Of a stretch of DNA of 64,000 bases, positions 4,809 to 49,798 are shown in pieces (the stretch's first letter is position 1; each line of letters begins with the position of its first letter). A program made the translations under genes and the position numbers. Below the pieces are notes generated by a model that was given only the letters and a program-made list of their open reading frames with translations, was not told the DNA's origin and did no database searches. The stretch comes from Opitutales bacterium (GTDB taxonomy: Bacteria > Verrucomicrobiota > Verrucomicrobiia > Opitutales > PNEW01): contig CBDANS010000007.1 of the NCBI GenBank assembly GCA_965197745.1, positions 32,001-96,000 of the forward strand. The letters are read 5' to 3'.

Positions 4809-5042
4809 TTACTGAAGCATAACAAGTGATCCTAAAATTCTGTATATTTGCGTAGAAGGATACTGTCTTCGAATATCACGGCTAGTGCAACAGGCAATAT
4901 CCAGAATTAATGATGGTACCTTCTTGAGGTAGCGCTCAAATGCAAGCCGACACATCGTTGGCGTTTCATCGTTTACTTCAGGATATAACTTCTCATAGAG
5001 CTCGGGACGGTCATAGAGTAGGTTCTTGACGCTCTTATCCAT
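4809..5042 (-). pseudogene. Truncated SAM-dependent methyltransferase fragment
   Basis: N-terminus up to ILDIACCTSRD (motif I-like), then runs into the attI-like element at 4821-4870. Confidence 0.65.
4821..4870 (-). other. attI-like element, family 1
   Basis: Minus strand ...AATATACAGAATTTTAGGATCACTT^GTTATGC; homologous to copies at 5061, 11791, 18450, 21020, 49002, 49770. Confidence 0.7.
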
Positions 5043-5060
5043 AGCTCAATTCCAGTGTCG

Positions 5061-5090
5061 AACAAGTGATCGTGTAGAAATGTTGTTTTC
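5061..5090 (-). other. attI-like element, family 1 (internally deleted)
   Basis: Plus strand aacaagtgatc-gtgtag equals the family consensus lacking ~18 bp; core GTTCGAC. Confidence 0.6.
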
Positions 5091-5150
5091 TCAGAGTTAT
5101 CGCTTCAGCAGCAGCAAGGTCAAGGTGTAATGCCCCCGTTTTCTAAGCTG

Positions 5151-5756
5151 CTATCGCAGCCGAAGTATCAGCACCCAGGCAATGAAGTCATTCTCCGACG
5201 TCACGCCGAATCTTTCTTGGGACACGGAATAGAACTGAAAGTGCGACTCGCACGCATCCACGAGTTCGGCGAGAGAGAGTCGTGGGTAACCTCGGGGGTC
5301 CGGTCCTCCGTCGCGACCACGATTGTCTGCGCAACCTGTCACGTCGATCCACCATCCCCTCGGCTTTAGTACACACGCAACTCGCTCGGCAAACTCGCCA
5401 CGTTGCGATTGGTCTTCGAAGTTGGAGATCACGCTTCTGTCAAACACTAGATCGTAGGGGCCGCCTGGATCATTGTGGAAAAAATCACTGACCGTAAACT
5501 CTACATCTAAGCCGCGACGAACTGCTTCGGAGCGCGCGGTATCAATAGCTGATTTTACAATATCGATCCCCCGAACCTTGAAACCTGCTGTTGCAAGGTG
5601 CAGCGCCTGTGTACCGACACCGCATCCAACATCAAGGATACGCCCACCATCTGGCAGAAGCTCTCGGACCATGTTCTCGAGTGGTGCCCACGGCATCCCA
5701 TCCTCCCAGGGTGTTTGACCCTGTCGGTACCACTCGTGCCAATCGAGAGAGGTCAT
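5151..5756 (-). CDS. Class I SAM-dependent methyltransferase (TPMT-like)
   Basis: ILDVGCGVG motif, N-terminal W..Y..G.TPW, YDLVFDRS. Confidence 0.85.
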   Translation of the reverse strand: MTSLDWHEWYRQGQTPWEDGMPWAPLENMVRELLPDGGRILDVGCGVGTQALHLATAGFKVRGIDIVKSAIDTARSEAVRRGLDVEFTVSDFFHNDPGGPYDLVFDRSVISNFEDQSQRGEFAERVACVLKPRGWWIDVTGCADNRGRDGGPDPRGYPRLSLAELVDACESHFQFYSVSQERFGVTSENDFIAWVLILRLR

Positions 5757-5768
5757 AGAGTTATCGTC

Positions 5769-6122
5769 TCACGGCTGCTGGCGGAGTTCAAATCCATTAC
5801 CTTCGCAATCTTGGAAACGGGCGACCCTATCGGATACTCTACCCCTGGGTTCGATAAGTTCGATCAAGCGCCCTCCAAGTTGCTCTATATCTGCTTGAAT
5901 CTCTTCAATATGGTTTACTTCAAGATTCAGACCGGCGTGAGGCAAAGGACCTTCATCATCAGAGGGAAGAATATGTAGCGCCAACTGAATGGCGCCGAAA
6001 TCCAGCATTGTCCAACCTGGAGATTCAACTGACGGCTTTACATCAAAGGCTTTCATATAGAAGTCCTTTGCTCGATTCATTTCATATACGTAATGAATTA
6101 CTATAGGATTTTTCGCTTTCAT
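5769..6122 (-). CDS. VOC/glyoxalase family protein
   Basis: AKDFY...F, LNLEV, FQDCEGNGFEL motifs; start moved to MKAKNP. Confidence 0.85.
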   Translation of the reverse strand: MKAKNPIVIHYVYEMNRAKDFYMKAFDVKPSVESPGWTMLDFGAIQLALHILPSDDEGPLPHAGLNLEVNHIEEIQADIEQLGGRLIELIEPRGRVSDRVARFQDCEGNGFELRQQP

Positions 6123-6123
6123 G

Positions 6124-6825
6124 TTACCTGACTCCTTTTGCAATTTCTGTATCGACCGATTTGTTCAGTCGATTTTTGTAAGCTGCTATTCCAAATGATA
6201 TGTCGGAGAATCTCTTCCAGACAACCTCGAATCCAAGCTTTTGTAGCTGCTCTAGCGACTCTTCAAGGTGCCAGAAGAATTCATCGCTCAGAGCCTCAGC
6301 AACGACTTCGTTTCCAAGCCTTCTGTATTCTTTGATCTTTTCGTTATTCGCTCTCGCGTTCTTAACCATGAGATCGCCGAAGACAGCCGCTCCACCATCG
6401 CCAAGGCTGGACCATAGTTCCTGAAAAAAGTGACTCTTCTCTTCTTCAGTCAAGTGATGAATTGTATACGTACTCAAAACTGCATCGAATAGTCCGAGAT
6501 CGCGCTCGAAAACTGCAAGAACGTCGTCGTTAATAAAGGTGCGATGATTTAGATGAGCGTTCTTATCGCGGGATAATTCCTCCATTCGGTCGGAAACGTC
6601 TACACAAACGACCTCTTTGCATTGAGGTATTCTCTTTGTCAGGTTGCCAGTGCCGGAGCCTAGCTCCAAGACTCTTGAGGAATCCTCTATACCAGCAACA
6701 GCTACAACCCAGTCGAGAACTGACTCGTAGTTGGTTCGGATGGGATCGGAATCGTTGAGAACGTCTGCATCGTAACCATCAGCTTCTTCGTCATGATTGA
6801 AGTAATCTGCGTGAGTGCTTCTCAT
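6124..6825 (-). CDS. Class I SAM-dependent methyltransferase
   Basis: VLELGSGTG, YTIHHL; start set after the attC at 6833. Confidence 0.85.
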   Translation of the reverse strand: MRSTHADYFNHDEEADGYDADVLNDSDPIRTNYESVLDWVVAVAGIEDSSRVLELGSGTGNLTKRIPQCKEVVCVDVSDRMEELSRDKNAHLNHRTFINDDVLAVFERDLGLFDAVLSTYTIHHLTEEEKSHFFQELWSSLGDGGAAVFGDLMVKNARANNEKIKEYRRLGNEVVAEALSDEFFWHLEESLEQLQKLGFEVVWKRFSDISFGIAAYKNRLNKSVDTEIAKGVR

Positions 6826-6832
6826 TTTTTTA

Positions 6833-6896
6833 CTCGAACGTCGAAGGTCTGGCATAGCAGCGCTAGCCTGCATTGTCCAGGAACGCTTGGTTATGT
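6833..6896 (-). other. attC site
   Basis: Minus strand ACATAAC...CTGG..GC/GC..CCAG...GTTCGAG. Confidence 0.8.
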
Positions 6897-6912
6897 CTGT
6901 TTCGTTTACCTC

Positions 6913-7938
6913 CTAGTGAGTCCGTTGGAATATGTAGCCGATCGAGTTCCTGGCAATCTCCTTTGTCACGGAGTTCGGTAATTCATTTGTATGCTCAGCT
7001 AGCTTCTTCAGCGCTTCGTCTGCGAGACGCACGGCTTCCTGCTGCGCATAATCGATTGATCCGAGTTCTTTAAATGTATCCAGAACCCACTTAATCTCCT
7101 GGTCGGTCCGGTCATTCCGCTGCTTTCCATATATTTTCCGCAACTCGTCCACCTTCGCGGATGATGCATGTTGTACGGCGTGCCAAAGGATCAATGTCTT
7201 AGCACCACTGCGGACATCATTCCCAATTGATTTTCCGAGAACCCTTTCTGTCGACGTGCAATCCAACACGTCGTCTGTCAACTGAAAGGCCTTGCCGGCC
7301 GGAACGCCATATTCTGGTATCGCATCGATAGCTGGCTGGGATGCACCGGCTATAATCGCTCCGCATTGCATCGGACCGTAAACACTATAATAGGCTGCCT
7401 TCGCATGAATCGATTCGTAATACATTTCAGGCGTAAAATCGGTGACTTCGGTCGTGCATTCGCTTAGGTTGATGTCTAGATATTGACCTTCGTGGGTCGT
7501 GTGCATGATGTCGTAGAATCGCTCAAGATACCTTCTACCTCGTTCCTTGCCGATCGTTTCCGCTGCGTCTATCGCCGCCTTCCAGCTAAATGCCTGAAGG
7601 TGGCTGCCGGCCAGAATGGCGTATCGCTCACCGTGCATGATGTGCGCAGCTGGTCCGTTCCGTCTGATTAGATTGCCATCCATCCAATCATCATGCATGA
7701 GAAAGTAGTCCTCAGACAGCTGTGCTGCAGCAGCGGGTAGAATCGCATCTTCATCATTCCCCCCATACAGGACAGTCCAAAGGATTAGGTAAACTGGCCT
7801 CCGGTATTGGCCTTGGCGGTCAACGTAGGTGCGAACCATGTTATGGTACGTCTCCGGCTCACCTCCGGGTAGGTATCTACATACAGTTTCGTAGATCCTA
7901 TCTCTGTAGGAACTCTTGAAGGATTGGAAGTCGTTCAT
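6913..7938 (-). CDS. Polyprenyl synthetase (trans-isoprenyl diphosphate synthase family)
   Basis: Two DDxxD motifs (HDDWMD, TDDVLD), RR loop, GQYLD, GK..GND. Confidence 0.9.
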   Translation of the reverse strand: MNDFQSFKSSYRDRIYETVCRYLPGGEPETYHNMVRTYVDRQGQYRRPVYLILWTVLYGGNDEDAILPAAAAQLSEDYFLMHDDWMDGNLIRRNGPAAHIMHGERYAILAGSHLQAFSWKAAIDAAETIGKERGRRYLERFYDIMHTTHEGQYLDINLSECTTEVTDFTPEMYYESIHAKAAYYSVYGPMQCGAIIAGASQPAIDAIPEYGVPAGKAFQLTDDVLDCTSTERVLGKSIGNDVRSGAKTLILWHAVQHASSAKVDELRKIYGKQRNDRTDQEIKWVLDTFKELGSIDYAQQEAVRLADEALKKLAEHTNELPNSVTKEIARNSIGYIFQRTH

Positions 7939-7946
7939 TTCAGTTG

Positions 7947-8019
7947 GTATAAAGATAAAGCTCTCAGGATTTCATGAAGTCCCAGCGAAATGAAATTCTT
8001 GTGCAGCGCATTGTTGGAT
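7947..8019 (-). other. attC site with mutated R' (TTTATAC)
   Basis: ATCCAAC AATGCGCTGCACAAGAATTTCAT...ATGAAATCCTGAGAGC TTTATC TTTATAC. Confidence 0.75.
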
Positions 8020-8040
8020 GTTCCATTTCTGTACAGTACA

Positions 8041-8469
8041 TCAGAGACACTCGCTTATCCTCGCAGCATAAGAATCCCGCGTTACCTGATCTGAAGTTGG
8101 CGGTTCCGCGGGATAGACGCGAAGGAATCCATCGGCGGTCTTTCGCGGATGAATATGAAAATGGAGATGCGGAACCTCCTGGAATGCCGCGGGCCCGATC
8201 GAGTGCCAGAGGCTGAGACCTTCGCCTGGGAAGGCTGTGTCGACAGCCCGCGTTATCCGTGAAATCGTTTCCATAAGAGCTGTGCCGGTGGGGGTGTCCA
8301 GTTCCCGTACGTCGGGAATATGCCGACGAGGGATCACCAGTGTGTGCCCGGCGTGGAACTGCCGAATATCCACGAAGGCCATTGTCAGGTCATCCTCGTA
8401 GACGATGCTGGCGGTACGTGTTCTCTGCGCGATTTCGCAAAACACACAGGCCTCATGTGTTCCGTTCAT
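8041..8469 (-). CDS. HIT family protein
   Basis: CVFC, GHTLVIPRRH, HLHFHIHP. Confidence 0.92.
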   Translation of the reverse strand: MNGTHEACVFCEIAQRTRTASIVYEDDLTMAFVDIRQFHAGHTLVIPRRHIPDVRELDTPTGTALMETISRITRAVDTAFPGEGLSLWHSIGPAAFQEVPHLHFHIHPRKTADGFLRVYPAEPPTSDQVTRDSYAARISECL

Positions 8470-8471
8470 CT

Positions 8472-9125
8472 TCAGCTTGTGACGATCCCTCGCCACACCC
8501 TTTTGAATGGTTTCCCTGTCTCTCTGTCAGGAATTTCAATATGTTCAAGCCGTAGAGATGCCCAGATTTGGAATAGAGATTCCAATTTTTCCCTGAAGAA
8601 GAAATGAACAGTCTGTCCATCTTTCTCAAGAATTAGGTTCTCACCCAGTTCTGCAAGTACTGGCTTTCTCAATGCGCGAAGCTCACGATCTTCAGTGGAG
8701 TTTACATGGAAAATAAACTGTCCTGAAAGTTTCAGCACCCGTTTCACCTCCATGATGATGCTCTGAGTTGTCGCGTCATCAAACATATGAAGGGTGACAT
8801 TTGAAAAAACAGCGTCGAAAAGGTCGTCAGGAAAGGGAAGCGTATGTGCCATGTCGGCTTGTATGAATTCAGCCCCCGGGATCGACTTCGATTTCGCCAT
8901 TGAAATCGCTTTATCGGAGAATTCAAGCCCTGTTACGCGAAAACCCGCTTTTGATAAACGAGCCACGTCATTTCCGGATCCGCAGCCAAGGTCCAGGATG
9001 CTCCGGCATCCACGCGCTCGAAGGACATCAATGAACGGGTCAATCCATAGACCACCCCAATTCAGGTCACCATATTGATCGAACCGCCTATCCCAGACGG
9101 AAGAGTCTGCATAAGATGAAGTCAT
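8472..9125 (-). CDS. Class I SAM-dependent methyltransferase
   Basis: ILDLGCGSG, FDAVFSNVTLH. Confidence 0.88.
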   Translation of the reverse strand: MTSSYADSSVWDRRFDQYGDLNWGGLWIDPFIDVLRARGCRSILDLGCGSGNDVARLSKAGFRVTGLEFSDKAISMAKSKSIPGAEFIQADMAHTLPFPDDLFDAVFSNVTLHMFDDATTQSIIMEVKRVLKLSGQFIFHVNSTEDRELRALRKPVLAELGENLILEKDGQTVHFFFREKLESLFQIWASLRLEHIEIPDRETGKPFKRVWRGIVTS

Positions 9126-9138
9126 AAATATATCTCTC

Positions 9139-9227
9139 AGCTAACGTTAGAGCTCACCGGCCTTGGCTTGTAGTTGCTGCACTGGAAGTGCAGCTAGCCG
9201 AGGCCCGTGTGCAGCTAATAGTTATAC
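9139..9227 (-). other. attC site (canonical, 89 bp)
   Basis: GTATAAC TATTA GCTGCAC...GGCCTCGGCT...GCTGCACT TCC AGTGCAGC...AGCCAAGGCC GGTGAGC TCTAAC GTTAGCT. Confidence 0.92.
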
Positions 9228-9232
9228 AAATC

Positions 9233-9679
9233 TTATAATTCATAAACATACTCAAAATTATGATCACCATCTAACTTTGCCCCTGTTGATTCATATAATT
9301 TCTGAGCTTCAATATTATTATGTCCTGTTCCAACCCATATTTCCATAATGTTTTCATTCTTACCTATATCTTTCATCAGTTGAATCATCGACTTCCCAAT
9401 TCCTTTTCTTCTATGTTTCTCATCTACTCCAATTTCATATAAGTACACCATATATTTATCTCTATCAATTCTTGGGAATTTATGTGCAATTAAAAAACCT
9501 ACAGGCTCATCATTTATTAACCCCAAAATCAAATAATTACATGGATTATGAAGTAATTCTAGGATGTGTATTGAACTTGGGTAGCGACTTTTCCCCTCAA
9601 CATTTATTTTTAGTTTGATGATCGCTTCAATAGCAAGCTGATCATCATTAGGGGATAGCCGTTTGACTTCAAAATTCAT
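9233..9679 (-). CDS. GNAT family N-acetyltransferase
   Basis: YEIGVDEKHRRKGIG, N..A..LYESTG; start after the attC. Confidence 0.88.
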   Translation of the reverse strand: MNFEVKRLSPNDDQLAIEAIIKLKINVEGKSRYPSSIHILELLHNPCNYLILGLINDEPVGFLIAHKFPRIDRDKYMVYLYEIGVDEKHRRKGIGKSMIQLMKDIGKNENIMEIWVGTGHNNIEAQKLYESTGAKLDGDHNFEYVYEL

Positions 9680-9687
9680 TTCTATTT

Positions 9688-9744
9688 GTATAACGTCAGC
9701 CATCAGGCGTGCCATTTGGCATCGCCTGCATGGCAGGGTTGGGA
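9688..9744 (-). other. attC site (57 bp)
   Basis: TCCCAAC CCTGCCATGCAGGCG ATGCCA AA TGGCA CGCCTGATGGC TGAC GTTATAC. Confidence 0.9.
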
Positions 9745-10571
9745 CTTTTCATTTCCTCATAGAGTTTGCCGGGGGAAAGAAACCTGAACCCAAGGTCCTT
9801 AGCTCGCACTAGAAAATCCGAAATCCACTTTCCTTTTGTCTTTTGGAATACCTCCACGGTCGGGGTGTCGTGGTCGTGACTGCATACGTTCCAGATCCAC
9901 TGCTTTTTCGATACCTCATGAAGCATCGCGACAAGATAGTCCTGATAGCTATCGCCGTGGCGCCGGTCGTCGAAACGATCCCAATAGAAATCATCCTGAT
10001 AGCCCTGAATCCCAAGCTCGAGGATATCCGGGAATCCCTGATCGTCATAGAAGAAGGGTTGTTCTGTGAAAGGCGTTGGCTGACAGTCACGAAAGTCACG
10101 CGCATTCGTGCGAATCCACCGGATGCCATTGTCCTGCAGGATTTGCAGGATATCAGGCCGATCAACCAGACCTCGGTAGTAACCCCAGGGACCGGTCAGT
10201 CCGTGGCACTCGACACTCAGCACATCGCCGATCAATGTCTGGGTCCTGGTGATTTCTTCACGGATTTCGCCTTAGCTGCCGCCTGCATTGAAAAAGTTCG
10301 GGTATGATCCATGTACCGGTTTGCCATCATGGGGCGTCATATAGACGGATTTTAGCAGTGTGTGGCTGTAGGTGTGCTGACCAATGGTTAAGAGCGGATT
10401 GTCTACCATCTTCTGAATCTCATCACCACACTTCTCGAGGGTTTTGCCCGTGAGGTAGATCGTCCATGGTACCTCCAACTTATTGTGTAGAATCTCTGCA
10501 CCCCGGAGGAATCCTATAGTGCTGTCTGACGCGGTTTCGACGTCGTATCCGCAGATTATGCTCGCGCTCAT
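9696..10571 (-). pseudogene. Polysaccharide deacetylase (NodB-like) interrupted by one in-frame TAA at 10272-10274
   Basis: ORFs 10272-10571 (GYDVE, IGQHTYSH) and 9696-10235 are in the same frame, joined by GGS*GEIREEITRTQTL. Confidence 0.8.
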
Positions 10572-10590
10572 AATTAGTGCCCCCTTGTAG

Positions 10591-11766
10591 TTACATTCTG
10601 GCTAGCTGTCTGTTAATCTTTTCGATTCCCTTATCAATACGCTGCTTGCTCCAACCATAGGGAGTAGGGCACAAAACCGTCTTTTTCAGGTACTTGTCTG
10701 TCTGCCTTAGCGGTTGCCGGTAGTTGGTCTTGATTTTCTTGTTCCTGGGGTGCCTGAAGCAATCCCAATCCGGATGGTGCCCCCCGACCTTGCTCTTAAC
10801 CACATCCCAGGCTGAATACACATGGCGACCTGAGTTGATGGGGCGGTGCACGCCAGGGACTAGATGCTTTACCATTATTGCTTCAAGTTTCTCGGCGGCT
10901 TTAATATTCTCTGCCTGGATTAGAAAGCACACACCACAGTTGCCGTTTTCATCATTGCTAATTACGAACTTGAAACCAACCGGTAAATTAATCCCTGCGA
11001 GGAACATCGATCGTGTTTTCCGAAGAGTCGTCAGTATCCTGTCCAACCGTTTGACCTGCTCTCTCATAATGACGGCGTTGAGATCATTGAATCTAAAGTT
11101 GCCCCCGCAAAAATAGCTTTCGTGCATCTTGCCTTTTTCCGGCCAGACACTACAGGCCCCGTCCTGCGCCATGTATGCTTTTTCACCGTATTTCCTGTTT
11201 GAGGTGGCGCATGCACCCCCTTCGCCGCAAGAAATAATCTTAAACTGATTGAAGCTGAAAGCGCCCATGTCGCCGATTGCCCCGAGTCGCTTCTTACCAT
11301 AACTACCACCGATGGCCTGGCAGCAATCCTCGAGAATGAGAATATTCTTTCCTTTTGCTATCTTTCGTATTGCCCGCATGTTGCACGGCATGCCCTGCAT
11401 GTGCACAGGAATTACGCAGGCAGTATGCTTTTCTATTTTCCGCTCCATATCGACGGGGCACAGCGTAAGGGTTTCGTCAACTTCCGTATATATGGGGATT
11501 GCACCCACAGCTGTCACGGCCAAGGCCGTGGAAATAAAGGTGTATCCTGGAACCAGAACAGAGTCTCCAGGGCCGATTCCCATTGCTTTCAAACTGATTA
11601 TGAGCGCGGCAGTTCCGGATGTAACTGCAATTGCCGACTTAACGCCGATCAGTTCTGCCCATTCTTTTTCGAACTTGACCGTTTCCGTGCCCAGGTATCG
11701 AAAGTACGTCCTCTTTTCGAGCGCACGTTTTACCGCATTCAATTCCTTTGTTCCAAGCTCGTACAA
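10591..11766 (-). CDS. DegT/DnrJ/EryC1/StrS PLP-dependent aminotransferase
   Basis: SGTAAL, EDCCQAIG, FSFNQFKIISCGEGG (PLP lysine). Confidence 0.93.
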   Translation of the reverse strand: MYELGTKELNAVKRALEKRTYFRYLGTETVKFEKEWAELIGVKSAIAVTSGTAALIISLKAMGIGPGDSVLVPGYTFISTALAVTAVGAIPIYTEVDETLTLCPVDMERKIEKHTACVIPVHMQGMPCNMRAIRKIAKGKNILILEDCCQAIGGSYGKKRLGAIGDMGAFSFNQFKIISCGEGGACATSNRKYGEKAYMAQDGACSVWPEKGKMHESYFCGGNFRFNDLNAVIMREQVKRLDRILTTLRKTRSMFLAGINLPVGFKFVISNDENGNCGVCFLIQAENIKAAEKLEAIMVKHLVPGVHRPINSGRHVYSAWDVVKSKVGGHHPDWDCFRHPRNKKIKTNYRQPLRQTDKYLKKTVLCPTPYGWSKQRIDKGIEKINRQLARM

Positions 11767-11790
11767 TGGTGATACCTCCTGTTAAGACCC

Positions 11791-11806
11791 AACAAGTGAT
11801 CCTAAA
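11791..11806 (-). other. attI-like element, family 1 (core only, cut by REPIN-like element)
   Basis: Minus strand TTTAGGATCACTT^GTTGGGT; GTTGGG complements R'' TCCCAAC of attC 9688-9744. Confidence 0.65.
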
Positions 11807-11817
11807 AAGATCAAAAA

Positions 11818-11961
11818 GAGTCGGGCTGTGTATTTGTAGATTGTTTTTCAATAAATAGTCAAAGTGAAGTAATAAAAAATAGTTATTTGAATTAGTTAAT
11901 TCTTAATATTTACAGGCTGTATTATTCTATTATGTAAATCTATAAATACACAGCTTGACCC
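11818..11961. repeat. REPIN/MITE-like element with 25-bp terminal inverted repeats
   Basis: GAGTCGGGCTGTGTATTTGTAGATT ... AATCTATAAATACACAGCTTGACCC (21/25 match), AT-rich interior; related arms at 21176-21201 and 62564-62589. Confidence 0.7.
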
Positions 11962-12056
11962 CATTTTCACTGACCCCTTCCACTCTCAGTCGGTACGGAT
12001 TGCGGAATGAACCTTACGGTTATTAAATATAATCCCCATCTTAGTAATCACACTCT

Positions 12057-12097
12057 TGTCATTGCGAAGGAGGTGAAGCCGACTGCGGCAATCCAGG
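12057..12097 (+). repeat. GTCATTGCGA...GCAATC palindromic (REP/RPE-type) element
   Basis: TGTCATTGCGAAGGAGGTGAAGCCGACTGCGGCAATCCA resembles a widespread palindromic repeat class. Confidence 0.5.
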
Positions 12098-12260
12098 TAA
12101 ATAGTCATTGTGTCTACGAATAGCAATCTCCGCGCAAGTCTTTCCAATGCGGGTTCGTCTCTTCAATTTAAGGTAATCGACCAGTTGAGAGTTAATCCTA
12201 ACATCCCGGGAAATACATGACGCAACAGACTTTCCCCTGGAATGGAAGATGTCGCTGCGC

Positions 12261-13859
12261 TTAAGCATATTGCACGAGAATCTCGACATGATCCAACTGC
12301 GGAGTCACGCAAATCGTCGGGTTGAGGCATTCCACGTCGATCTTCAATTCATTCTGGCCGAGCCTCAAGACATCGAGCAGTATGGGATAAGTCATGCGGG
12401 TAATATTATCCATGATAAACTGCGCCCGAGTGCTCCGCGCTTCTCCCGGCAATAGCCTTCCGTTAACTGAGACCTTATACTCATCCAGCTGCGTAAAGTT
12501 GTCTACCTGCAAGTGCAAGGTGACTCTCGGTGACAGCGCCTGTTGCCGCGCCGCTTCCAGATCATCGGCAATCCCGAACGGAATGACGTGTGACCCAACC
12601 GACAGCTCTACAGGGAGCACGATCGCGTCGATACCGCGGTAGATCCTGTGATTTTGTCCTGTTTCAGCGCCCTGGTTTGGGGCGCGCGGATGTGAATCGA
12701 GATCGTAATCACAGTTGAGAAAAGCAAGCACGCCCGGATCGTGGATCTCGTGCAGCACACTGTAATACTCCGGGTGCAGATCGTCATACCAGACCGTCCC
12801 TGTTCGCTCGGATTGCGGTGGCGTATCTTTTCCGTGTCCGTAGAGCAAGTGCCCGTAGTTGAACAGTTGCAACCCATGTGCTCCCCGGTGGTACATCAAC
12901 TTGGCCCAGGCGCGGGTTACTTCCGTCCTTTTCCAGTGATTTGAGCACGGGAAAATCCAGCAGTCATGCCCTTCAACCAGTTCCAACCACGGGTCGAGGT
13001 CCATATAGAATAACATGTATCCGGCGCCTGGCGCAATGACGTCAACCAATCCCTCTTTCACCCAGGTATGAACGTCCAGTCCTCGTTGCCAGCACGTGTC
13101 GATATCCGCCACCACCCGCACATGCAGGTACATGGGCCGACCACGTTCGCGGCTCATACGGTCGAGAATCTCGCGCGTCTGCCGTATTATGTCCGTAATA
13201 AGCGCAGCGTTTTTCGCTTTGCCGAACTCTTTGAAGTAGCGAGGATCTCGATCGAAATCAAGCGCGACGCCGTCGTTGTCCCATCTGGTGATGAACTCCT
13301 CGATGATGGCCATTTTGTGGTCGCGTACCTCTTTGTGTGCAAAATCAAACATTCCCCAATTGGTGGAGTCCATACTCTCGGGATTGGGGTGCGCTCGCCA
13401 CCAAGTCCCCCAAGGCGGCTGCCAATCCGGCCCAGTGTAACCCAAAAGCAGGTGCAGGTTGTTCATCTTGAACCGGCTGACTTCGTACTTGTAAATCTGG
13501 TCGTGTGCATCATTCATTCGAACGATCGGAATCACCTTTAAGCCCATGCGGTGCCCGTACTCACACGCCAGCTGCGGCGGGTTCGCGTTCGCCTCGATCA
13601 GCTTCTTGGTGTTCTCGCGATAGCGCCAAACCCAGGCGTCCTCGAATTGCTCGAACGCATCGCCCATAATTTCGCCGCTCTCCAGACCGCAGCAGTAAGC
13701 GTCCGACGAGCAGAGGTTGTAGAGCAGGCAGTCCACCTGTGTCTCCTCCAGCGGCCGTATGCATTCGCCCAGCCATTGCTCTGGCGTCAGCGGGTAATCC
13801 ACGCACGCAATATCGTTCCATTCAGCCTCCCATATCAGTCGAAACGGTTGATCCATCAT
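12261..13859 (-). CDS. Glycoside hydrolase-like protein (GHL10-like TIM barrel)
   Basis: IVRMNDAH, FDFAHKEVR, DGVALDFDR, GLDVHTWVKEGLVD motifs. Confidence 0.7.
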   Translation of the reverse strand: MMDQPFRLIWEAEWNDIACVDYPLTPEQWLGECIRPLEETQVDCLLYNLCSSDAYCCGLESGEIMGDAFEQFEDAWVWRYRENTKKLIEANANPPQLACEYGHRMGLKVIPIVRMNDAHDQIYKYEVSRFKMNNLHLLLGYTGPDWQPPWGTWWRAHPNPESMDSTNWGMFDFAHKEVRDHKMAIIEEFITRWDNDGVALDFDRDPRYFKEFGKAKNAALITDIIRQTREILDRMSRERGRPMYLHVRVVADIDTCWQRGLDVHTWVKEGLVDVIAPGAGYMLFYMDLDPWLELVEGHDCWIFPCSNHWKRTEVTRAWAKLMYHRGAHGLQLFNYGHLLYGHGKDTPPQSERTGTVWYDDLHPEYYSVLHEIHDPGVLAFLNCDYDLDSHPRAPNQGAETGQNHRIYRGIDAIVLPVELSVGSHVIPFGIADDLEAARQQALSPRVTLHLQVDNFTQLDEYKVSVNGRLLPGEARSTRAQFIMDNITRMTYPILLDVLRLGQNELKIDVECLNPTICVTPQLDHVEILVQYA

Positions 13860-14039
13860 ACCTTGCCTTTCTCTACTTATCCATCGTTAATTTGCCAACA
13901 AGCTTATTAGCATTTCTTTATATTTTCTAATATATTCAAGTAAATTTTCCCAACTTCAATAATTTGGTTTAAGACAATCATTTCTATTGTTTCGAGCCCA
14001 ATTTTGCGTTATAAAATAATTCAACTCCTCAGAAAAGGC

Positions 14040-14879
14040 ATGCTTACCGAACAGCAGATCCAACATTTTGAAACCTTCGGTTTTATTGTCCGTCGTCAAG
14101 TGTTTAGCGTTGAGGAAATTGCCAGGTACAATGAAGAGTTCGATAATCATCTCTCCACCTTAAAAGATGGGTTTGAAAAAATAAAAAATAGCCGTTCCCG
14201 TAAATGGCCTAATTGGTCTAACCTTATTCCGGAGACACCCTGTCTGGCAGGTATGTTGGAAGACTCACGCATTTGTGTGCCCACTGAGCAATTACAAGGA
14301 GAAGATACAGTTCCCGTGCGATCCAATGCCAACAGCTTTAGACATAACACTGACTGGCATCCGGATTCGAGGCAGCGGCATTTGCGCATGCTTAAAAATC
14401 TTGTTTATCTGCAACCCACGACCGGTGACCGTGGATCATTGCGTCTTATCCCGGGCTCTCATGTAAGTCCTTTGTTCGATGAGCTGATTCGTATCGGTCT
14501 GAATAAATCTGAAGGTAATGAATCGAAGTATCTCAAAGAATCCGGGATGAGCGGCGAAGACATTCCCTGTTATATATTCACTTCGCAGCCGGGTGACGTT
14601 ATCACTTTTAATATGAATGTATGGCACGCGGCTTTTGGTGGTTATGAAGATCGCAGGAATTGTTCCCTTGCTTTTTACAGCAATCCCAGGACTGCTCAAG
14701 AAGAAGAGGATCTACGTGCTCAGGTGGATAATGCCAAAAATATCAGTCCTAATATGGATTTGCAGGATGCGCAATACTATCATCCCTGGTGGCTATCCAA
14801 CCCAGAAGGCAGCGCCAGGCGAGCACGCTGGATAGAATGGCTGGATCAATGGGGCTTTATCGAAGCGATGAGTAATTAA
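14040..14879 (+). CDS. Phytanoyl-CoA dioxygenase (PhyH) family protein
   Basis: MLTEQQIQHFETFGF, WHPD, GSLRLIPGSH, WH motifs. Confidence 0.88.
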   Translation: MLTEQQIQHFETFGFIVRRQVFSVEEIARYNEEFDNHLSTLKDGFEKIKNSRSRKWPNWSNLIPETPCLAGMLEDSRICVPTEQLQGEDTVPVRSNANSFRHNTDWHPDSRQRHLRMLKNLVYLQPTTGDRGSLRLIPGSHVSPLFDELIRIGLNKSEGNESKYLKESGMSGEDIPCYIFTSQPGDVITFNMNVWHAAFGGYEDRRNCSLAFYSNPRTAQEEEDLRAQVDNAKNISPNMDLQDAQYYHPWWLSNPEGSARRARWIEWLDQWGFIEAMSN

Positions 14880-14908
14880 TAATAATATTTAAGACTACAC
14901 TCTGACCC

Positions 14909-16481: not shown

Positions 16482-16502
16482 CACTCTGACCCCTTTTATG
16501 AT

Positions 16503-17057
16503 TCAGCGGTGATCAAGTATCCAGTCGACCGCGGTGGAGACATCTTCAGCAATATGATCCGCATTGATTTCTGCCCATAAATGGCGATACTTACCTAACG
16601 ATCTATTTCCGACGCCAGTCTTGACGAGAACTGCGCGGCTTCCAATGTGGCGAGCGAGATGCATGTCACTTGACCCGTTGTCACCTACCACACACGACGT
16701 GCCAATATCGATGGGGAAATCTTTGAGAGCGCGATCGATAAGGCCTCGTTCGGGCTTTCGGCATTGGCACTGATCACGTCGGGTATGTGGGCAGCAATAC
16801 ACGCGGTCCCATCGAGCTCCAAGACGGGCGAGCTCTGCTGTCAGCGTGGCGACACGTTCATCAAAAGCCTCTTGCGTAATTACCCTCTTGCCGATTCGAC
16901 TTTGATTGGTAACCACGATTGTTAAAATACCTGCTTCGTTGAGACGTTGGAGCGCTGCTGGGGCGTAGGGAAAAAACTCAAATGACGTGATGTCGCCAAG
17001 ACCATCACCTTCAAGTGTGCCCTGCAAATCGAAAAAGATGGCTGACACTTGGGTCAC
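16503..17057 (-). CDS. HAD-IIIA hydrolase (GmhB/histidinol-phosphatase-like)
   Basis: FFDLQGTL, VVTNQS, CPH...C.CRKP, VGD motifs. Confidence 0.85.
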   Translation of the reverse strand: MTQVSAIFFDLQGTLEGDGLGDITSFEFFPYAPAALQRLNEAGILTIVVTNQSRIGKRVITQEAFDERVATLTAELARLGARWDRVYCCPHTRRDQCQCRKPERGLIDRALKDFPIDIGTSCVVGDNGSSDMHLARHIGSRAVLVKTGVGNRSLGKYRHLWAEINADHIAEDVSTAVDWILDHR

Positions 17058-17062
17058 TGTGC

Positions 17063-17119
17063 AGCTAATGTTTAAGGGGAGGCACAACTTCAGGTGTTGT
17101 CTCCTTCGACTGGTTCAGC
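17063..17119 (-). other. attC site with R' ATTAGCT
   Basis: GCTGAAC CAGTCGAAGGAGACAAC...GTTGTGCCTCCCCTTAAAC ATTAGCT; R'' complements cassette start GTTCGGC. Confidence 0.7.
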
Positions 17120-17626: not shown

Positions 17627-17631
17627 TTCCT

Positions 17632-17716
17632 GCCGAACGTTAAAAATGAATGGTTTCCTGACCAGAGTGACGAAGGAGCAACGGGAAGGGAATCCATCTC
17701 CATTTGCTTGTTAAAT
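17632..17716 (-). other. attC site (85 bp)
   Basis: ATTTAAC AAGC AAATGGAGATGG...CCATTCATTT TTAAC GTTCGGC. Confidence 0.88.
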
Positions 17717-17720
17717 ATTT

Positions 17721-18428
17721 TTATTCGATTAATTCAACAATACTCTTAATGATTCGATTGGGAACAATTTTTGAGGATAATGGAAGTCCTTTGTCTTTAT
17801 AGTCATTCCAGATACTATAAATTCCTAATTGTTGAGGTCCCCAGACATCCCATTCGAGATTATCTCCCACTGCCCAAACCCTCTCAGGTGCTAATTTTAA
17901 GGCATTCAACGCATCATAATAAACTTGTTGTTTAGGCTTACCATAGCCCAATTCTCCCTCGATTAAAATAACATCAAAAATTTGTTCTAGGCCAAATCTG
18001 TTAATTTTAGCTCTTTGTGTTTCAGCTTCTCCATTGGTCAAGAGAGCCAGGGAAACCTTCTTGTTTCTCAAATGCTTTAAGGTATCCTTAGCTCTCGGAA
18101 ACAAGTGAATTAATTCTGTTCTTCTTGTTGAATATGCATTCGCTATTTTATCAGTTAGATCGAGGTTGGTTATCCCTAATTCTTTCAATGCCAAGTGGAC
18201 AATTTCATTTCTTGTTTTATCTAGATTGTTGCGTCCCCTTTTATGTCGTTCTCGATCAGACCAATACCACTGCCGAATTTTTGAAATGGATTGAAATAAG
18301 TCATTTGAATCAGATAATCCACAATTCTGATAATATTTTTCACAAACCTGAGACCATGCTGCATCAGCAACTAGATCAAATGAGATGATCGTGTCATCTA
18401 AATCAAATAGGATACCCTTCGGTAGCAA
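17721..18428 (-). CDS. HAD-superfamily hydrolase (subfamily IA)
   Basis: LFDLDDT, LTNG, GKP, VGDNLEWD. Confidence 0.9.
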   Translation of the reverse strand: MLPKGILFDLDDTIISFDLVADAAWSQVCEKYYQNCGLSDSNDLFQSISKIRQWYWSDRERHKRGRNNLDKTRNEIVHLALKELGITNLDLTDKIANAYSTRRTELIHLFPRAKDTLKHLRNKKVSLALLTNGEAETQRAKINRFGLEQIFDVILIEGELGYGKPKQQVYYDALNALKLAPERVWAVGDNLEWDVWGPQQLGIYSIWNDYKDKGLPLSSKIVPNRIIKSIVELIE

Positions 18429-18449
18429 TTGAGTTTTCTATGAAAATTT

Positions 18450-18504
18450 AACAAGTGATCCTAAAGTTCTGTATATTCGTGTAGGGGGATAATGTTGTCA
18501 ATGC
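18450..18504 (-). other. attI-like element, family 1 (full-length)
   Basis: GCATTGACAACATTATCCCCCTACACGAATATACAGAACTTTAGGATCACTT^GTTAAAT; GTTAAAT is the exact complement of R'' ATTTAAC at 17710-17716. Confidence 0.78.
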
Positions 18505-18549
18505 GGGGATAATGCCCCCATCCGACTTCAATATAATTCTACCTAAGGA

Positions 18550-19122: not shown

Positions 19123-19123
19123 T

Positions 19124-19150
19124 GTATAACGACTAAACTAAGGTGCTAGT
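19124..19150 (-). other. attC right-arm remnant
   Basis: CCTTAGTTTAGTC GTTATAC immediately before the ATG of the next gene; left arm absent. Confidence 0.5.
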
Positions 19151-20259
19151 CGACGTTGCCTGTACTGTCTTGTTCGCCCCTGTTTTTTCGATACATGACA
19201 TTTGATTGGTTTTCAGCCAGCAAAAGCTTTCTACAATCTTTGTCCTTCAGATAAATGTCGAAAAATTCGACAATCACCGCTCCCAATCTTTCCACGCGTT
19301 CCTTCGGGCGAAATGAAATTAACGATTTGGCCTCTTTAGCGCCACTGTTCATAGGGAAGATAGTTGGCAGTCGAAAAATTGTTATGGTCCCAACCTTCGA
19401 AAATCACGAAATTGAATTCCCCATTAAAGTCTTTGGCATCGTCAGCGAACAGTTGAGCGATTCCATCCAAATTTGGTCTGCCTCTAATTCTCAGCATCGG
19501 GGAAAAGCTACTTCTGAGTTTTCTCTGTGTGCTTTCCGGTCATCGGTTAATACCCGATGTTCCGTCATTCGTCATATAGGCATAGAGAAATCCGTCGATA
19601 TTTACGGCTGCTTTAATTCTTTCATCCTCGGCGTCGAGTAATGTGGAGACATAGCCACCGCGAGAATGCCCAAATATGCCGATAGTATCTAGATTGACGG
19701 CATTGGCCAGCGCCTCGGGGGAATTGCTTCCGAAAATGAAATCGAGGACTTTCTGAGCATCAACAACCCGATCTTCAGTCATTTTAATGAAATCGTCAAC
19801 ATCTGCGATTTCTATGCAAAGGTGACCGTTGGGGTATGTGATCAGGATTCCTTCATGAGGATGGTCTATTGAAACAATGACATAACCCGATAATACAATC
19901 TGCCTGAGAACCGGAAGGTTTGAAAAGCGATTTCCATTTCCGGAAGGCGAGTACAAAAGCAGCGGATAGGGATTTTGCCCTGAAAGCAGTTCGGCGTTCT
20001 CATAGCACCCGGTTGCGATCTTCATTGAGTCTTCAATGATTCGCCCCTTATCCCCTTCGGATAGAAGCGTGCCATTCAGGATACAGTCAAGTGCTGGTTT
20101 TATGGAAGGCCTGAAGAGGTCAATGTACATCATCTCACGCGAGACCGCATCTCGTGAAGCCGGATAAAAGATCGAAATCGGTATCGTTCTTGAAGGATAC
20201 GAAGCAACAGAACTTCGGTTGCCATCTTCGATAAAGCAGTGTTCAACGCCTACATCCAT
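19146..20259 (-). pseudogene. Alpha/beta hydrolase (PAF-acetylhydrolase-like), disrupted
   Basis: GHSRGG nucleophile motif; in-frame TGA at 19540-19542 followed by ...GWDHNNFS; C-terminal VEFFDIYLK in another frame (19146-19352). Confidence 0.75.
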
Positions 20260-20304
20260 CTGATTGTATGCTTCTCATGTCGTGGGAATCTCATTTTCTG
20301 GTGA

Positions 20305-20375
20305 ACCTACCTGCAAGCTCACTGGATTTCACGGAGCGTAGCGGATTGTAGTACCAGTGAAGCGCCTTGTTAGCG
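20305..20375 (-). other. attC site with R' GGTAGGT
   Basis: CGCTAAC AAGGCGCTTCACTGG...CCAGTGAGC TTGCA GGTAGGT. Confidence 0.8.
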
Positions 20376-21008
20376 ATTCTCATCCTTCCTTGCAAGCATC
20401 AAGGAATGGCCTACATCTCCTTCAGGAATGAACTTATCCCAAATAATCACAAAACCTGTTTCCTCAAGCCATTGAATGTAAGTGTCACGATCAGCATGAC
20501 TCCAATACATATTGGCGCCGTCAACCCCAAGCCAGTTAGCTTCTTCACCTGTCCATTCCCGCTGACCTGCAGAAAGAAGAAACAGGTTCTCAGGTTTCAA
20601 CCATGTCCCTATCCTCGCCAGGAGTTGTCGTTGCTGTGCAAGCGGCACATGGATTATGGTATAGAGGCAAACTACAGCATCGAAACCTTCGGATGCAAAG
20701 TCCATTTCGCATATATCACCCCAGACAAATGATGCATCTGGAACCAGTTCTCGTGCCCGTTCAATTTGCACCGTAGATATGTCAGCACCGGTAACCTTGA
20801 ATTTCTGACTCAACAGTTGTGTCGTCGGCACACCGCAACCACATCCAAGATCTAGAACAGAACATCCTTCTTCCAGCTGAGCTGATAATTCGTCAATCCA
20901 GCCTTTGTACTCCTTGTAGCTCTCACCTGACTTCTCAGGATTGTCTTCACGGTAGGCGAAAGAAACCTTGTCGTAACCTTCTCTTACAATATCCTTTGGG
21001 TTGCTCAT
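20370..21008 (-). CDS. Class I SAM-dependent methyltransferase
   Basis: VLDLGCGCG, FDAVVCLYTIIHVP; stop overlaps attC R''. Confidence 0.9.
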   Translation of the reverse strand: MSNPKDIVREGYDKVSFAYREDNPEKSGESYKEYKGWIDELSAQLEEGCSVLDLGCGCGVPTTQLLSQKFKVTGADISTVQIERARELVPDASFVWGDICEMDFASEGFDAVVCLYTIIHVPLAQQRQLLARIGTWLKPENLFLLSAGQREWTGEEANWLGVDGANMYWSHADRDTYIQWLEETGFVIIWDKFIPEGDVGHSLMLARKDENR

Positions 21009-21019
21009 GTCTTATCACT

Positions 21020-21072
21020 ATCAAGTGATTCTAAAGTTCTGTGTATTCGCGTGTGGGGATAATGTTATCAGG
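21020..21072 (-). other. attI-like element, family 1
   Basis: Plus strand atcaagtgattctaaagttctgtgtattcgcgtgtggggataatgttatc; core GATAGTG. Confidence 0.7.
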
Positions 21073-21251
21073 TTAAAGCTTGGCAATTTCAAATCGTTAC
21101 CAACAATATCCGTTTACATACCTGACAGTTGATATTTATTTTTCATATCTTCACATTTATGACTCATGTAGATCTAATTTATAAATACACGGCGCGACCT
21201 CTTTTATTTTCTTAAAAAATCGATATACGAGATACGAAAAAAGAGATTTGT

Positions 21252-47539: not shown

Positions 47540-47638
47540 TTTTTTTTGTCATAAAATTAACTATACTTTTATATATCATAATACACCTCTTTAGAGTAAT
47601 TATAACTATTGATGACCCCTTTGAATTACTCTTTATTT

Positions 47639-48988
47639 TCAGTTTGTATAGGGGACTGTTCCGCTCTCGTCAATGGGGTACCCCCACTTCTCGATGTAAG
47701 CCTTCCCTGGTAAGAACTGATCCATCTGCTCGTCGAGTTTCTTCTGGAGTGCTTCATCCAGTTCGGCTCGGATTTTAACGGAACTGGGATCATGAGCGAG
47801 GTTTAGTAATTGGAACGGATCAGAATCATTATCATAGAGCAGCCACGGACCATTGAGATCACGCACATAGGTGTAGCGCTTTGTGCGAAGCCCGCGGTAC
47901 TCCTTTCCTCCATGTTGTTCAACAGTCCATTCGCCAAAAGTGTGTGGACACGTGAGAAGCGCCGCTCCGTCTGTGGGGTCGATTCCTCCCAATATATGGT
48001 CGGAGAAATCCAGTCCCTCAACCTGGTCGGGAATAGGCAAGGCGCACAAGCTAAGAAGAGTTGGCATGATATCCTGTGCGTCAATCAGGGCGTCGGTTTC
48101 CCGCGGCTGCCAACCTGGAAGGTTTGGGTACTTGAAGAGAAAGGGCACTCGGATGGATTCTTCCCAGGGCCGTTGTTTCCTGATCTGGCCATGGGAACCG
48201 AGCATATCGCCGTGGTCAGATGTGAAGATGACAATCGTGTCTTCAGAAAGGCCACATTCTTCGATAGTGTTCAGAATCCTTCCCATACAGGTATCCAGCG
48301 CTGAGCAGTGAGCGTAGTATCCCGCCAGCCACTCTCGCGCCTGGGGTGCAAGGGTGTCAGGGACATTAGGGCGCAACTGGATCTTATCGGTCTCATAGAG
48401 TCTTCGATATTCTTCTGGTGCTGTCTCGTAGGGATTGTGAGGGGGCCCCCAGGAGAGCATAAGGAAGAAAGGTTTCTTTCCTGTGTGAGAGCGGATGTAC
48501 GATTCCGCATCATGCGTCTGTGCTATAGTGTCGTAGCCATCCCATTCGTGCTTTTCGTCTGAATTACCCGCATAGTAAGAAGAATGATTGTAATCGTGTG
48601 TACACTCGAGCACTTTCCAATAATCAAATCCAAGGCGTCGTTGTGGCGGAATGTACTTGGATCGACCGTGCCCACCCACATGCCATTTACCAATGTAGGC
48701 AGTATCGTATCCCCCACCGGAGAATGACTCGGCAATGCTCGTAGTGTTGATCTGAAGATGAACGTCATTCACGAATATGCCGTGTGTCAACGGGCGCAGA
48801 CCGGTTAATAGACTGGCTCGGTATGGCGAACAAACCGGACATCCGGAAACGGCATTCGTGAAGTTCAAACTATCCGCAGCGAAGGCATCAAGATTCGGTG
48901 TCTTGACGTTCGGATCACCGGCATATCCGGTTGCTTGTTGTCTCCACTGATCACCGAAGACAAACACTATGTTTGGTTTTTTATTCAT
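47639..48988 (-). CDS. Sulfatase
   Basis: CSPYRASLLTG, GKWH, SDHG. Confidence 0.93.
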   Translation of the reverse strand: MNKKPNIVFVFGDQWRQQATGYAGDPNVKTPNLDAFAADSLNFTNAVSGCPVCSPYRASLLTGLRPLTHGIFVNDVHLQINTTSIAESFSGGGYDTAYIGKWHVGGHGRSKYIPPQRRLGFDYWKVLECTHDYNHSSYYAGNSDEKHEWDGYDTIAQTHDAESYIRSHTGKKPFFLMLSWGPPHNPYETAPEEYRRLYETDKIQLRPNVPDTLAPQAREWLAGYYAHCSALDTCMGRILNTIEECGLSEDTIVIFTSDHGDMLGSHGQIRKQRPWEESIRVPFLFKYPNLPGWQPRETDALIDAQDIMPTLLSLCALPIPDQVEGLDFSDHILGGIDPTDGAALLTCPHTFGEWTVEQHGGKEYRGLRTKRYTYVRDLNGPWLLYDNDSDPFQLLNLAHDPSSVKIRAELDEALQKKLDEQMDQFLPGKAYIEKWGYPIDESGTVPYTN

Positions 48989-49001
48989 TCTGCCTTCTGC
49001 G

Positions 49002-49056
49002 AACAAGTGGTTCTAAAGTTCTGGATATTTGCTATGGGAATATTGTTGTCAATGCA
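49002..49056 (-). other. attI-like element, family 1
   Basis: Plus strand aacaagtggttctaaagttctggatatttgctatgggaatattgttgtcaatgc; core GTTCGCA just upstream of the sulfatase ATG. Confidence 0.7.
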
Positions 49057-49097
49057 GGGGGGGGGCAGGGTGATGTCGATCTTTTTACTTCACCCAA

Positions 49098-49760
49098 TCA
49101 GATTCTCCGCAAGGCATCACTCAAGTCTAATTCGCGAAATGTTTGACACAGGGTACCGGTGGCCATTCGTTCCTGCCATCGTCCGCGTTGCTCCCGCACT
49201 GCATCGTCGGCAGGTATGGAGTCGAGAACGGCTATTGCAAAGTCGCGGAGTAGATGACTCTGACACTCTATGACAAGATCGGATGACGCCGTAGTACCGG
49301 TTTCGGAGTATGCAAAGCAGCGCTTGACATTGCGTCTGGCGCTTTCCCATTCAACGGGTGCAATCGTTATCTCGCCTACGTCGTTGTCTGGAACCAGTAG
49401 GACGGTCACACCCCGACCGGTAATGGCCTCTACTGTCTGCTGTGCATCGGGGGGAACATGGACATTCTTATGGTAAGGCCAGATATCAAACATGCCATAG
49501 TCGGCACACGGGCTTACACGCTGAAAGGTGAAGAAATCCGGGTAGGCAAAGAACTCCGATCCTCGCTCGCGATAGCGATCATAGAATGCCGTCACATATG
49601 ACATGATAAGGGTGATGGCGCCAATGCCCTCGAGTCGATGGGGAATGACGATGCCGACACGATCCGTATCCCGAACCGACGAAAAAAAATCAACATGCGG
49701 GATGGCCTTTCCACGCCACGCGATCTTGAAATCTGTGCCTCGGATGCTGCTGCTGTGCAT
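49098..49760 (-). CDS. Hypothetical protein
   Basis: 220-aa ORF directly after an attI-like site. Confidence 0.7.
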   Translation of the reverse strand: MHSSSIRGTDFKIAWRGKAIPHVDFFSSVRDTDRVGIVIPHRLEGIGAITLIMSYVTAFYDRYRERGSEFFAYPDFFTFQRVSPCADYGMFDIWPYHKNVHVPPDAQQTVEAITGRGVTVLLVPDNDVGEITIAPVEWESARRNVKRCFAYSETGTTASSDLVIECQSHLLRDFAIAVLDSIPADDAVREQRGRWQERMATGTLCQTFRELDLSDALRRI

Positions 49761-49769
49761 GGTATGTCA

Positions 49770-49798
49770 AATAAGTGATCCTAATGTTCTGTATATTC
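49770..49798 (-). other. attI-like element, family 1 (truncated next to REPIN-like element)
   Basis: Plus strand aataagtgatcctaatgttctgtatattc. Confidence 0.62.

Follow-up and report, generated by a model that had tools for sequence, protein, structure and literature searches.

A repeated promoter-like element that ends at a crossover triplet in an integrase-less attC array of an Opitutales bacterium

How genes deep within large integron arrays are expressed, and how arrays without an integrase originate and persist, are open questions in integron biology. Both are raised by a stretch of 64,000 nucleotides (hereafter the window) from an Opitutales bacterium, namely positions 32001-96000 of contig 7 of a 4.45-Mb assembly (92% complete). 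An element of up to about 56 bases recurs in this window, at several places directly upstream of a gene that ends in an attC recombination site. The order Opitutales belongs to the phylum Verrucomicrobiota, in which the window is placed because one family relative, a single 4.49-Mb contig, was deposited as an Opitutales assembly. The original prediction, made from the sequence alone, described the element as non-palindromic, with a terminal GTT at which circular cassettes had been integrated and with the possible added function of a promoter. What, then, is this element? We give a probability of about one half to the reading that it is a promoter and an attI-like insertion point, Pc and attI in one, multiplied in an array that lacks an integrase.

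The element and the junctions behind it

Searching the window with the 16-base core of the element returned seven matches, all on the minus strand, where 0.63 were expected; none of 100 shuffled sequences reached seven. The core is exact at 4821, 11791 and 18450, carries two mismatches at 21020, 49002 and 49770 and three at 5061. When aligned, the copies at 18450, 21020, 4821 and 49002 match over ~56 bases and that at 49770 over ~47, with 5061 and 11791 reduced to the 3' core. All seven positions, and the two core-only copies, agree with the original prediction. The shared order is TTGACA, a 17-base spacer, GAATAT (or a close variant) and a core of 22-25 bases ending in GTT, this 3' part being the best conserved of the element. 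A start codon usually lies 10-60 bases past it, and in 19 of 23 copies a co-oriented frame of at least 60 amino acids starts within 130 bases. Sequence, orientation and distance to start codons together suggest that the element functions as a promoter.

A profile search of the whole genome identified 21 copies at E<=0.012. They form five clusters, four of them on contig 7 (26.8-81.8 kb, 1108-1110 kb, 1601-1606 kb, 2044-2054 kb) and one on contig 6 (752-754 kb). In an alignment of these copies the left end of the element is ragged, and conservation ceases at GTT; the predicted stop of homology right after this triplet is thereby borne out, similarity not extending past it. Counted by hand and in this genome only, the terminal triplet is GTT in 17 of the 21 copies, GAT in two, ATT in one and GTC in one; a purine follows it directly in 18; and TTGACA is intact in 14, including the full window copies at 18450 and 49002, in agreement with the two full copies of the original prediction. 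The 3' end has the form of an attC-type R' box, GTTRRRY with the border between G and TT (G/TT).

The element is not itself an attC site, as had also been predicted. Folding of 23 copies together with 60, 100 or 140 upstream bases gave z-scores scattered around 0, and three copies folded separately reached only 0 to -2.5 kcal/mol (z +0.5 to +1.8), weaker than their shuffles. Within 600 bases upstream, no inverted partner of the tail was found that was consistent between copies or exceeded the control level. Nor are the upstream neighbours attC sites at 18450, 4821 and 49002, where a gene end or a truncated gene is found. These neighbours are arbitrary: at 18450 a gene ends, at 4821 there is a methyltransferase that is truncated (our reading of a 77-amino-acid frame), and at 21020 a divergent dehydrogenase operon.

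Further evidence on the element concerns the bases that follow its triplet. In an excised cassette, the bases past G/TT pair with the cassette's own R'' box, and such pairs had been reported at four window copies. All four read as claimed, from 7/7 at 18450 to 5/7 at 21020 (Table 1). We then compared real with permuted pairings over the genomic copies. A first test used 23 copies and allowed AAC wherever it lay close to the stop of one of the first three frames; the summed matches were 47, against 38.4 +/- 3.5 (P = 0.012). A second test considered only the first real gene, took an AAC lying -6 to +30 from its stop and compared the four bases after GTT; four of the 23 copies had no frame of at least 60 amino acids starting within 130 bases and were dropped, leaving 19. 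Here the sum was 31 against 19.05 +/- 2.9 (P = 6e-5), a value that is optimistic because the design was fixed after the first result had been seen. Perfect agreement (4/4) occurred in two copies, where 0.16 were expected (P = 0.008), and agreement in at least three of four bases in six, where 2.0 were expected (P = 0.004). The predicted complementarity thus exceeds that of permuted pairs across all genomic copies.

The second design was also applied to relatives, in which 26 copies reach the end of the profile; 11 of these have no suitable gene and 15 were used. Three pairs were perfect (0.34 expected, P = 0.003) and the sum was 20 against 14.8 (P = 0.04); the four copies with at least three of four matches do not differ significantly from the 2.3 expected among these 15. 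The junction rule is real and covers about a third of the copies, which behave as a non-palindromic site whose G/TT receives attC cassettes. In three genomes, furthermore, no fewer than eight different attC cassettes begin at this same triplet of the element and not at nearby GWT triplets, which points to site preference. An apparent compensatory change between two 141-amino-acid cassettes was withdrawn, as the cassettes proved to be unrelated; they count as two separate perfect pairs.

The cassette array and its spread

Whether the neighbouring sites are genuine attC sites bears directly on these junctions. On the minus strand of the window lie intergenic sites with the full attC geometry: R'' (with AAC at its end) and L'' (with an extra-helical base) are parted by 5 bases, and L' and R' follow, parted by 6 bases, R' opening with GTT. 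Six of ten sites picked by hand fold with z-scores of -2.4 to -4.6 and four are weak. Two automatic finders were dropped: one based on hairpin energy was unspecific (26 minus-strand against 25 plus-strand matches, with 25-29 in shuffles), and one with strict L boxes missed most of the hand-picked sites and gave ~25 matches/Mb everywhere. Their place was taken by a covariance model, R1, built from seven of these attC sites.

Run on the window with filters off, R1 gave ten matches at E<=5, nine of them on the minus (cassette) strand. It found 12 matches in the genome, where five of the eight that were not seeds lie inside element clusters. Two relatives gave ten and two matches and two genomes from other families gave none, each whole-genome run having scored only 150 of ~540-1030 first-look candidates. 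When R1 was run on sequence flanking 16 integron integrase genes, taken from 13 genomes within the order, it returned 28 matches at E<=1, and all 28 are on the strand pointing away from the integrase gene, that is, in cassette orientation. Since R1 recognises sites beside real integrases, all of them correctly oriented, the window sites are of the integron attC type. The window is a true integron-type cassette array without an integrase, similar to what the IntegronFinder paper reportedly calls a CALIN, a group of clustered attC sites with no integrase; the surrounding region has at least two attC sites in one orientation and no integrase nearby. Plain attC-to-attC junctions matching 7/7 were seen three times, once in the window (9688-9744 to 9139-9227) and twice in contig 6 at 754153-756283.

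Two further observations concern these sites. The three-attC array at 754153-756283 of contig 6 begins right next to an inverted element copy and lacks a forward-oriented one. The hairpin of the DegT unit (9688-9744) is retained in relatives, where both sides of its inner stem are altered and GTT is missing, in one relative along with AAC; the unit lies there in another gene context. This hairpin could be an attC site that is arising or decaying.

Comparison between genomes shows where blocks begin and end. The block with the 158-amino-acid gene is 96.8% identical over 602 bases to that of a relative from another genus; it begins within the element, takes in the gene and its attC site and ends exactly past the GTT of the latter. 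The 242-amino-acid gene, together with the companion motif and the element, is 88.4% identical over 811 bases and ends in both genomes at the last T of the element's GTT, with neighbouring units permuted. A unit of the element and a 188-amino-acid gene lies on the opposite side in a relative, with a four-helix-bundle remnant between. The three-gene DegT unit is 77-78% identical in three relatives; against one of them similarity ends at the G of the attC site, and in the relatives its left border is not conserved up to G/TT. The cassette of the 178-amino-acid kinase was rejected as an example of a clean border: similarity begins four bases past the predicted junction and ends inside the next gene. 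Contigs from four DNA sequencing runs were compared with the window as well, and were given no weight as evidence: one run leaves ~18716-19983 uncovered, its contig pieces stopping at 17633 and resuming at 20316, ends that each lie ~5 bases from a predicted attC junction, and joints between element copies (4848 to 18481 among them) have sides of just 21-56 letters.

The element was found only in one Opitutales family. A 22-letter core pattern occurs in three of 41 genomes, namely that of the window and two of its three family relatives (G001 with 11 matches, G002 with seven), and in none of the 37 genomes from other Opitutales families; the carriers span two genera. A scan of a genome collection with a degenerate core pattern gave eight loci, six of them from one Opitutales assembly, and loci in Marinamargulisbacteria and Heimdallarchaeota were taken as chance matches of the degenerate pattern. 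Twenty loci came from a scan of metagenomes, with full-length copies in six that represent four distinct junctions. The 3' core without the promoter half is found beside cassette starts not only at 11791 and 5061 but also in three copies in G002.

Table 1. Element copies, attC sites and cassette genes in the window
Feature	Position	Strand	Remarks
Full element copy	18450..18505	-	TTGACA, 17-base spacer, GAATAT, 3' core ending GTT; nhmmer E 2.4e-13; HAD-hydrolase cassette next; post-GTT bases match R'' at cassette end 7/7
Element copy, diverged -35 region	4821..4876	-	Truncated methyltransferase fragment upstream, HIT/cupin cassette downstream; R'' match 6/7
Element copy heading sub-array	21020..21075	-	GAT instead of GTT; divergent short-chain dehydrogenase gene upstream, methyltransferase cassette downstream; R'' match 5/7 (3/4 variable bases)
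Element copy with TTGACA	49002..49057	-	Sulfatase gene downstream; no attC after the sulfatase gene
Element, 3' 47 bases	49770..49816	-	ATT instead of GTT; 220-aa gene without Pfam match downstream
3' core only, 3 mismatches	5061..5076	-	Precedes truncated methyltransferase fragment
3' core only, exact	11791..11806	-	Precedes three-gene DegT aminotransferase cassette; R'' at 9738-9744 matches 6/7
Upstream companion motif	21176..21205	-	Found before many genomic copies; more at 11937-11966 and 62564-62593
attC of HAD cassette	17632..17716	-	R'', 5-base spacer, L'' with extra-helical bases, L', 6-base spacer, R'; weak fold, z 0.28; model E 0.72
attC of HIT/cupin cassette	4073..4139	-	Model E 3.7e-12 (was a model seed)
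57-base attC ending DegT cassette	9688..9744	-	z -4.36; R' against next attC R'' 7/7
89-base attC	9139..9227	-	z -4.07; model E 0.0047, not a seed
Degenerate attC after methyltransferase cassette	20304..20375	-	R' GTA instead of GTT; z 0.88; missed by model at E<=5
attC-like site	7947..8019	-	Model E 0.0054
attC-like site directly upstream of second methyltransferase gene	19124..19178	-	Model E 0.058
HAD-family hydrolase gene	17721..18428	-	Cassette behind 18450
HIT plus cupin gene	4134..4808	-	Cassette behind 4821
Methyltransferase gene	20370..21008	-	Cassette behind 21020
DegT aminotransferase gene and two further frames	9696..11766	-	One cassette behind core 11791

Other repeated sequences are found in the same region. 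A second family of conserved upstream elements on the minus strand (56286-56311, 58341-58366, 60206-60231 and 63934-63959) likewise terminates in TGTT, with A or G as the next base and a start codon a few bases further on, and a further copy near 1467720 of contig 7 lies just upstream of an attC match; this family may be another promoter-like element at cassette starts. An IS4-family transposase gene (DDE_Tnp_1) occurs twice in the window, at 1036-2286 (+) and 15189-16439 (-), with a 92% identical copy in the main array of G001, and the ends of this IS4-like element bear GGGGTCAG-type sequence. Positions 12053-13911 hold a unit resembling an insertion sequence, with a 532-amino-acid frame without Pfam match and 91% identical copies in G002; the sequence at its end (12053-12261) recurs as a short repeat of high copy number in relatives and metagenome contigs. 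A motif of several A followed by GGGGTCA is intergenic, occurs in both orientations and in some inverted pairs, and often lies upstream of the element (2547-2603, 4044, 11962-11977, 16493, 45014, 47619, 50003 and others). The bare 7-mer GGGGTCA is not over-represented in the genome.

Explanations for the element

If the favoured reading is correct, the element would be a two-part, double-stranded intergenic module, its 5' half a sigma-70 promoter-like sequence and its 3' core ending at the crossover triplet G/TT. The attC cassette downstream would begin at the TT of that triplet; the element would have taken in the cassette, as a preferred rather than an accidental site, and by its sequence may now transcribe the promoterless gene. 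The junctions would have been made by an integron integrase that was later lost, or that is provided in trans; integrases are common in the same order. In a positive control for the integrase search, 86 of 301 sampled Verrucomicrobiota genomes scored over the TIGR02249 cut-off; among them were 18 of the 26 genomes of one family of the order and 10 of the 21 of another. The integrase frames of Verrucomicrobia (L081-L096), mostly 410-570 amino acids long, reach ~400 bases further on the N-terminal side than the 315-position model, so that verrucomicrobial integron integrases may well carry a long extension at the N terminus.

A number of results weigh against this reading. The best match to the integron integrase model in the window's genome and its three family relatives (G001-G003) scored 80 bits against the cut-off of 265; none of 14 tyrosine recombinase matches in the genome adjoins an element cluster; and the element profile has no match in the 900 bases beside the 16 integrase genes of the same order. 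Those that follow the junction rule are a minority, six of 19 copies here and four of 15 in relatives, and the R'' rule holds in none of the four distinct metagenomic junctions. Of the three perfect pairs found in relatives, one involves an unrelated cassette, and the other two belong to orthologues of cassettes counted before. The promoter, too, is open to objection, for GAATAT matches the -10 hexamer in only three of six positions (A2 and T6 are kept), and a promoter scan of 17500-21500 called neither 18450 nor 21020. Many copies outside the window are followed by a four-helix-bundle gene (PF05635) or by what deletion has left of such a gene, others head ordinary operons without attC sites, and the genes upstream of array heads are ordinary ones such as a short-chain dehydrogenase and a PhyH dioxygenase. 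To these must be added the optimistic P value of the second test, the seven seeds of R1 and its partial scoring of whole genomes. The scanned part of the metagenomic loci (16 of 26 frames of at least 180 amino acids) likewise held no integrase.

The original prediction therefore stands in part. Its GTT is a real 5' cassette boundary for a subset of copies, its neighbours are of the attC type and the element is no attC; as a general account of the copies it lacks support, since a minority of junctions obey the rule, no integrase was found in the four family genomes and the element has no likeness to the 16 integrase flanks, and its promoter is predicted from sequence and position.

Among the alternatives, the one that survives best, though we hold it to be somewhat unlikely, is that a promoter with its 5' leader, native to the PF05635 family, has been propagated and borrowed by accessory genes, and that cassettes landed at its GTT as at attG sites or were fused to it by homologous recombination, there being no dedicated site. 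PF05635 comprises four-helix-bundle proteins of 23S rRNA intervening sequences. In G001, most of the ~18 copies in one array lie before a four-helix-bundle gene or deleted remnant, and similarity among the four-helix-bundle copies continues through the element into a shared leader. The two thirds of junctions without the R'' rule, the two GAT copies, which fit the published GWT target, the left border of the 158-amino-acid block inside the element, as a homologous crossover would leave it, and the lack of an integrase in the window's genome and three relatives are all in keeping with such an origin. Harder to accommodate are the common start triplet of at least eight cassettes in three genomes, with the site preference that it implies, and the retention of the 3' core where the promoter half is gone.

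Some observations on the PF05635 units stand on their own. Genes and many internally deleted remnants were found directly behind element copies at L010 (7553-7990, contig 6), at L008 and L007 and at 2856000-2910000 of G001, and a strong hairpin resembling a terminator closes each of them. We rejected the possibility of a small RNA driven by some copies, as the unit behind them consists of the 5' leader and gene of a PF05635 protein or a remnant of these; Rfam searches of the window and of six loci were negative.

The same units suggest two bolder readings. We think it improbable that the element represents a new kind of attachment site, double-stranded and free of hairpins, with its own outward promoter, present in more than 20 copies per genome and exchanged between genera with its cassettes, and that together with the G/TT-bounded bundle units it forms a self-propagating promoter cassette served by an integrase in trans or by an unrecognised recombinase. 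Were this true, such a cassette would set up silent attC cassettes, and ordinary genes too, to be expressed. More doubtful still is that the element is the 3'-terminal attachment site of a cassette type of its own, made up of bundle gene, companion motif and element with G/TT on both sides, which moves by recombination of element with element or with attC and so delivers a promoter. The tandem order of element, remnant, element and gene is frequent in G001 and in this genome, the leader of the bundle gene always starts directly past GTT, and the element moves with the 242-amino-acid gene upstream of it; G001 has a remnant and a second element before the 188-amino-acid gene. Tandem genes that each carry the same promoter would give an identical pattern, however, neither a circular form nor an empty site was observed, a recombinase is lacking, and the upstream partners are often truncated genes (as at 4821), which fits deletion better than clean insertion.

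It is quite improbable that the element is simply the shared promoter, operator or leader of one regulon, with the R'' complementarity due to chance and aided by TAA-C stops. All 56 bases are conserved, the spacer included, as in a protein-binding region, the genes behind it encode accessory metabolic enzymes (sulfatase, methyltransferases, HAD and PhyH proteins) and several R'' boxes overlap a TAA stop; but the real pairs surpass permuted ones that preserve the stop-codon bias, other genomes have perfect pairs again, and blocks break exactly at GTT. Finally, a miniature transposable element or insertion sequence with an outward promoter, of which the element would be one end, is highly improbable: the islands are rich in insertion sequences and short repeats, and the GGGGTCAG-type motif, as at the IS4-like ends, often lies upstream in either orientation, but neither terminal inverted repeats nor a partner of the tail were found (target duplications were not searched for systematically), the left end is ragged and no transposase is linked.

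Relation to known systems

A search of the literature turned up no description of such an element, which is not proof of its absence from print. A conserved promoter-bearing site at cassette starts would show one way in which captured genes can be kept on after loss of the integrase, and would offer a concrete candidate sequence for integrase binding outside classical attI and attC sites. The array also extends detailed integron anatomy to the Verrucomicrobiota, where, as the positive control indicates, integrases are frequent.

Several known systems resemble the element in part. Putative mobile promoters, reportedly described by Matus-Garcia and co-workers in 2012, are said to be homologous promoters before unrelated genes. 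The element likewise places the same upstream sequence before unrelated genes in one genome; unlike them, its 3' end is the integron crossover point and obeys the cassette pairing rule. The term CALIN names the array and not the element. The window array fits it, with several attC sites on one strand and no integrase, whereas a repeated promoter-like site at cassette starts apparently falls outside its definition. Gene-less cassettes that carry promoters have reportedly been seen in oral metagenomes. Gene-less cassettes of Vibrio chromosomal integrons carry promoters that drive downstream cassettes (Blanco et al., Nucleic Acids Res 2024, PMC11014356). These are, like the element, short non-coding units within arrays that drive the cassettes downstream (a function only predicted for the element), but they have an attC hairpin of their own, whereas the element has neither hairpin nor attC and so does not qualify as a promoter-bearing gene-less cassette.

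Integrases also insert cassettes at GWT triplets outside att sites, and these cassettes are expressed near a resident promoter (Loot et al., bioRxiv 10.1101/2022.09.11.507474). These attG sites resemble the element in part: cassettes lie outside attI and attC at GWT, and the element, which has a promoter-like half, shows GTT or GAT as its triplet in 19 of 21 copies. They are described as a very broad landscape of unrelated places, whereas the element is one conserved 56-base sequence whose same triplet is used again and again.

The closest parallel is attI with its promoter Pc. The element differs from attI in that no integrase adjoins it or was found in the four family genomes, in that it is present in at least 21 copies per genome rather than once per integron, and in that it bears no likeness to the 16 integrase flanks. 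Like attI, it is non-palindromic and double-stranded and ends at G/TT, with the first cassette directly 3' of it and with bases that pair with that cassette's own R'' box; its predicted promoter would face the cassettes, as Pc does. Because no sequence match to the element lies beside these 16 integrase genes, its resemblance to attI is one of position and behaviour rather than of sequence.

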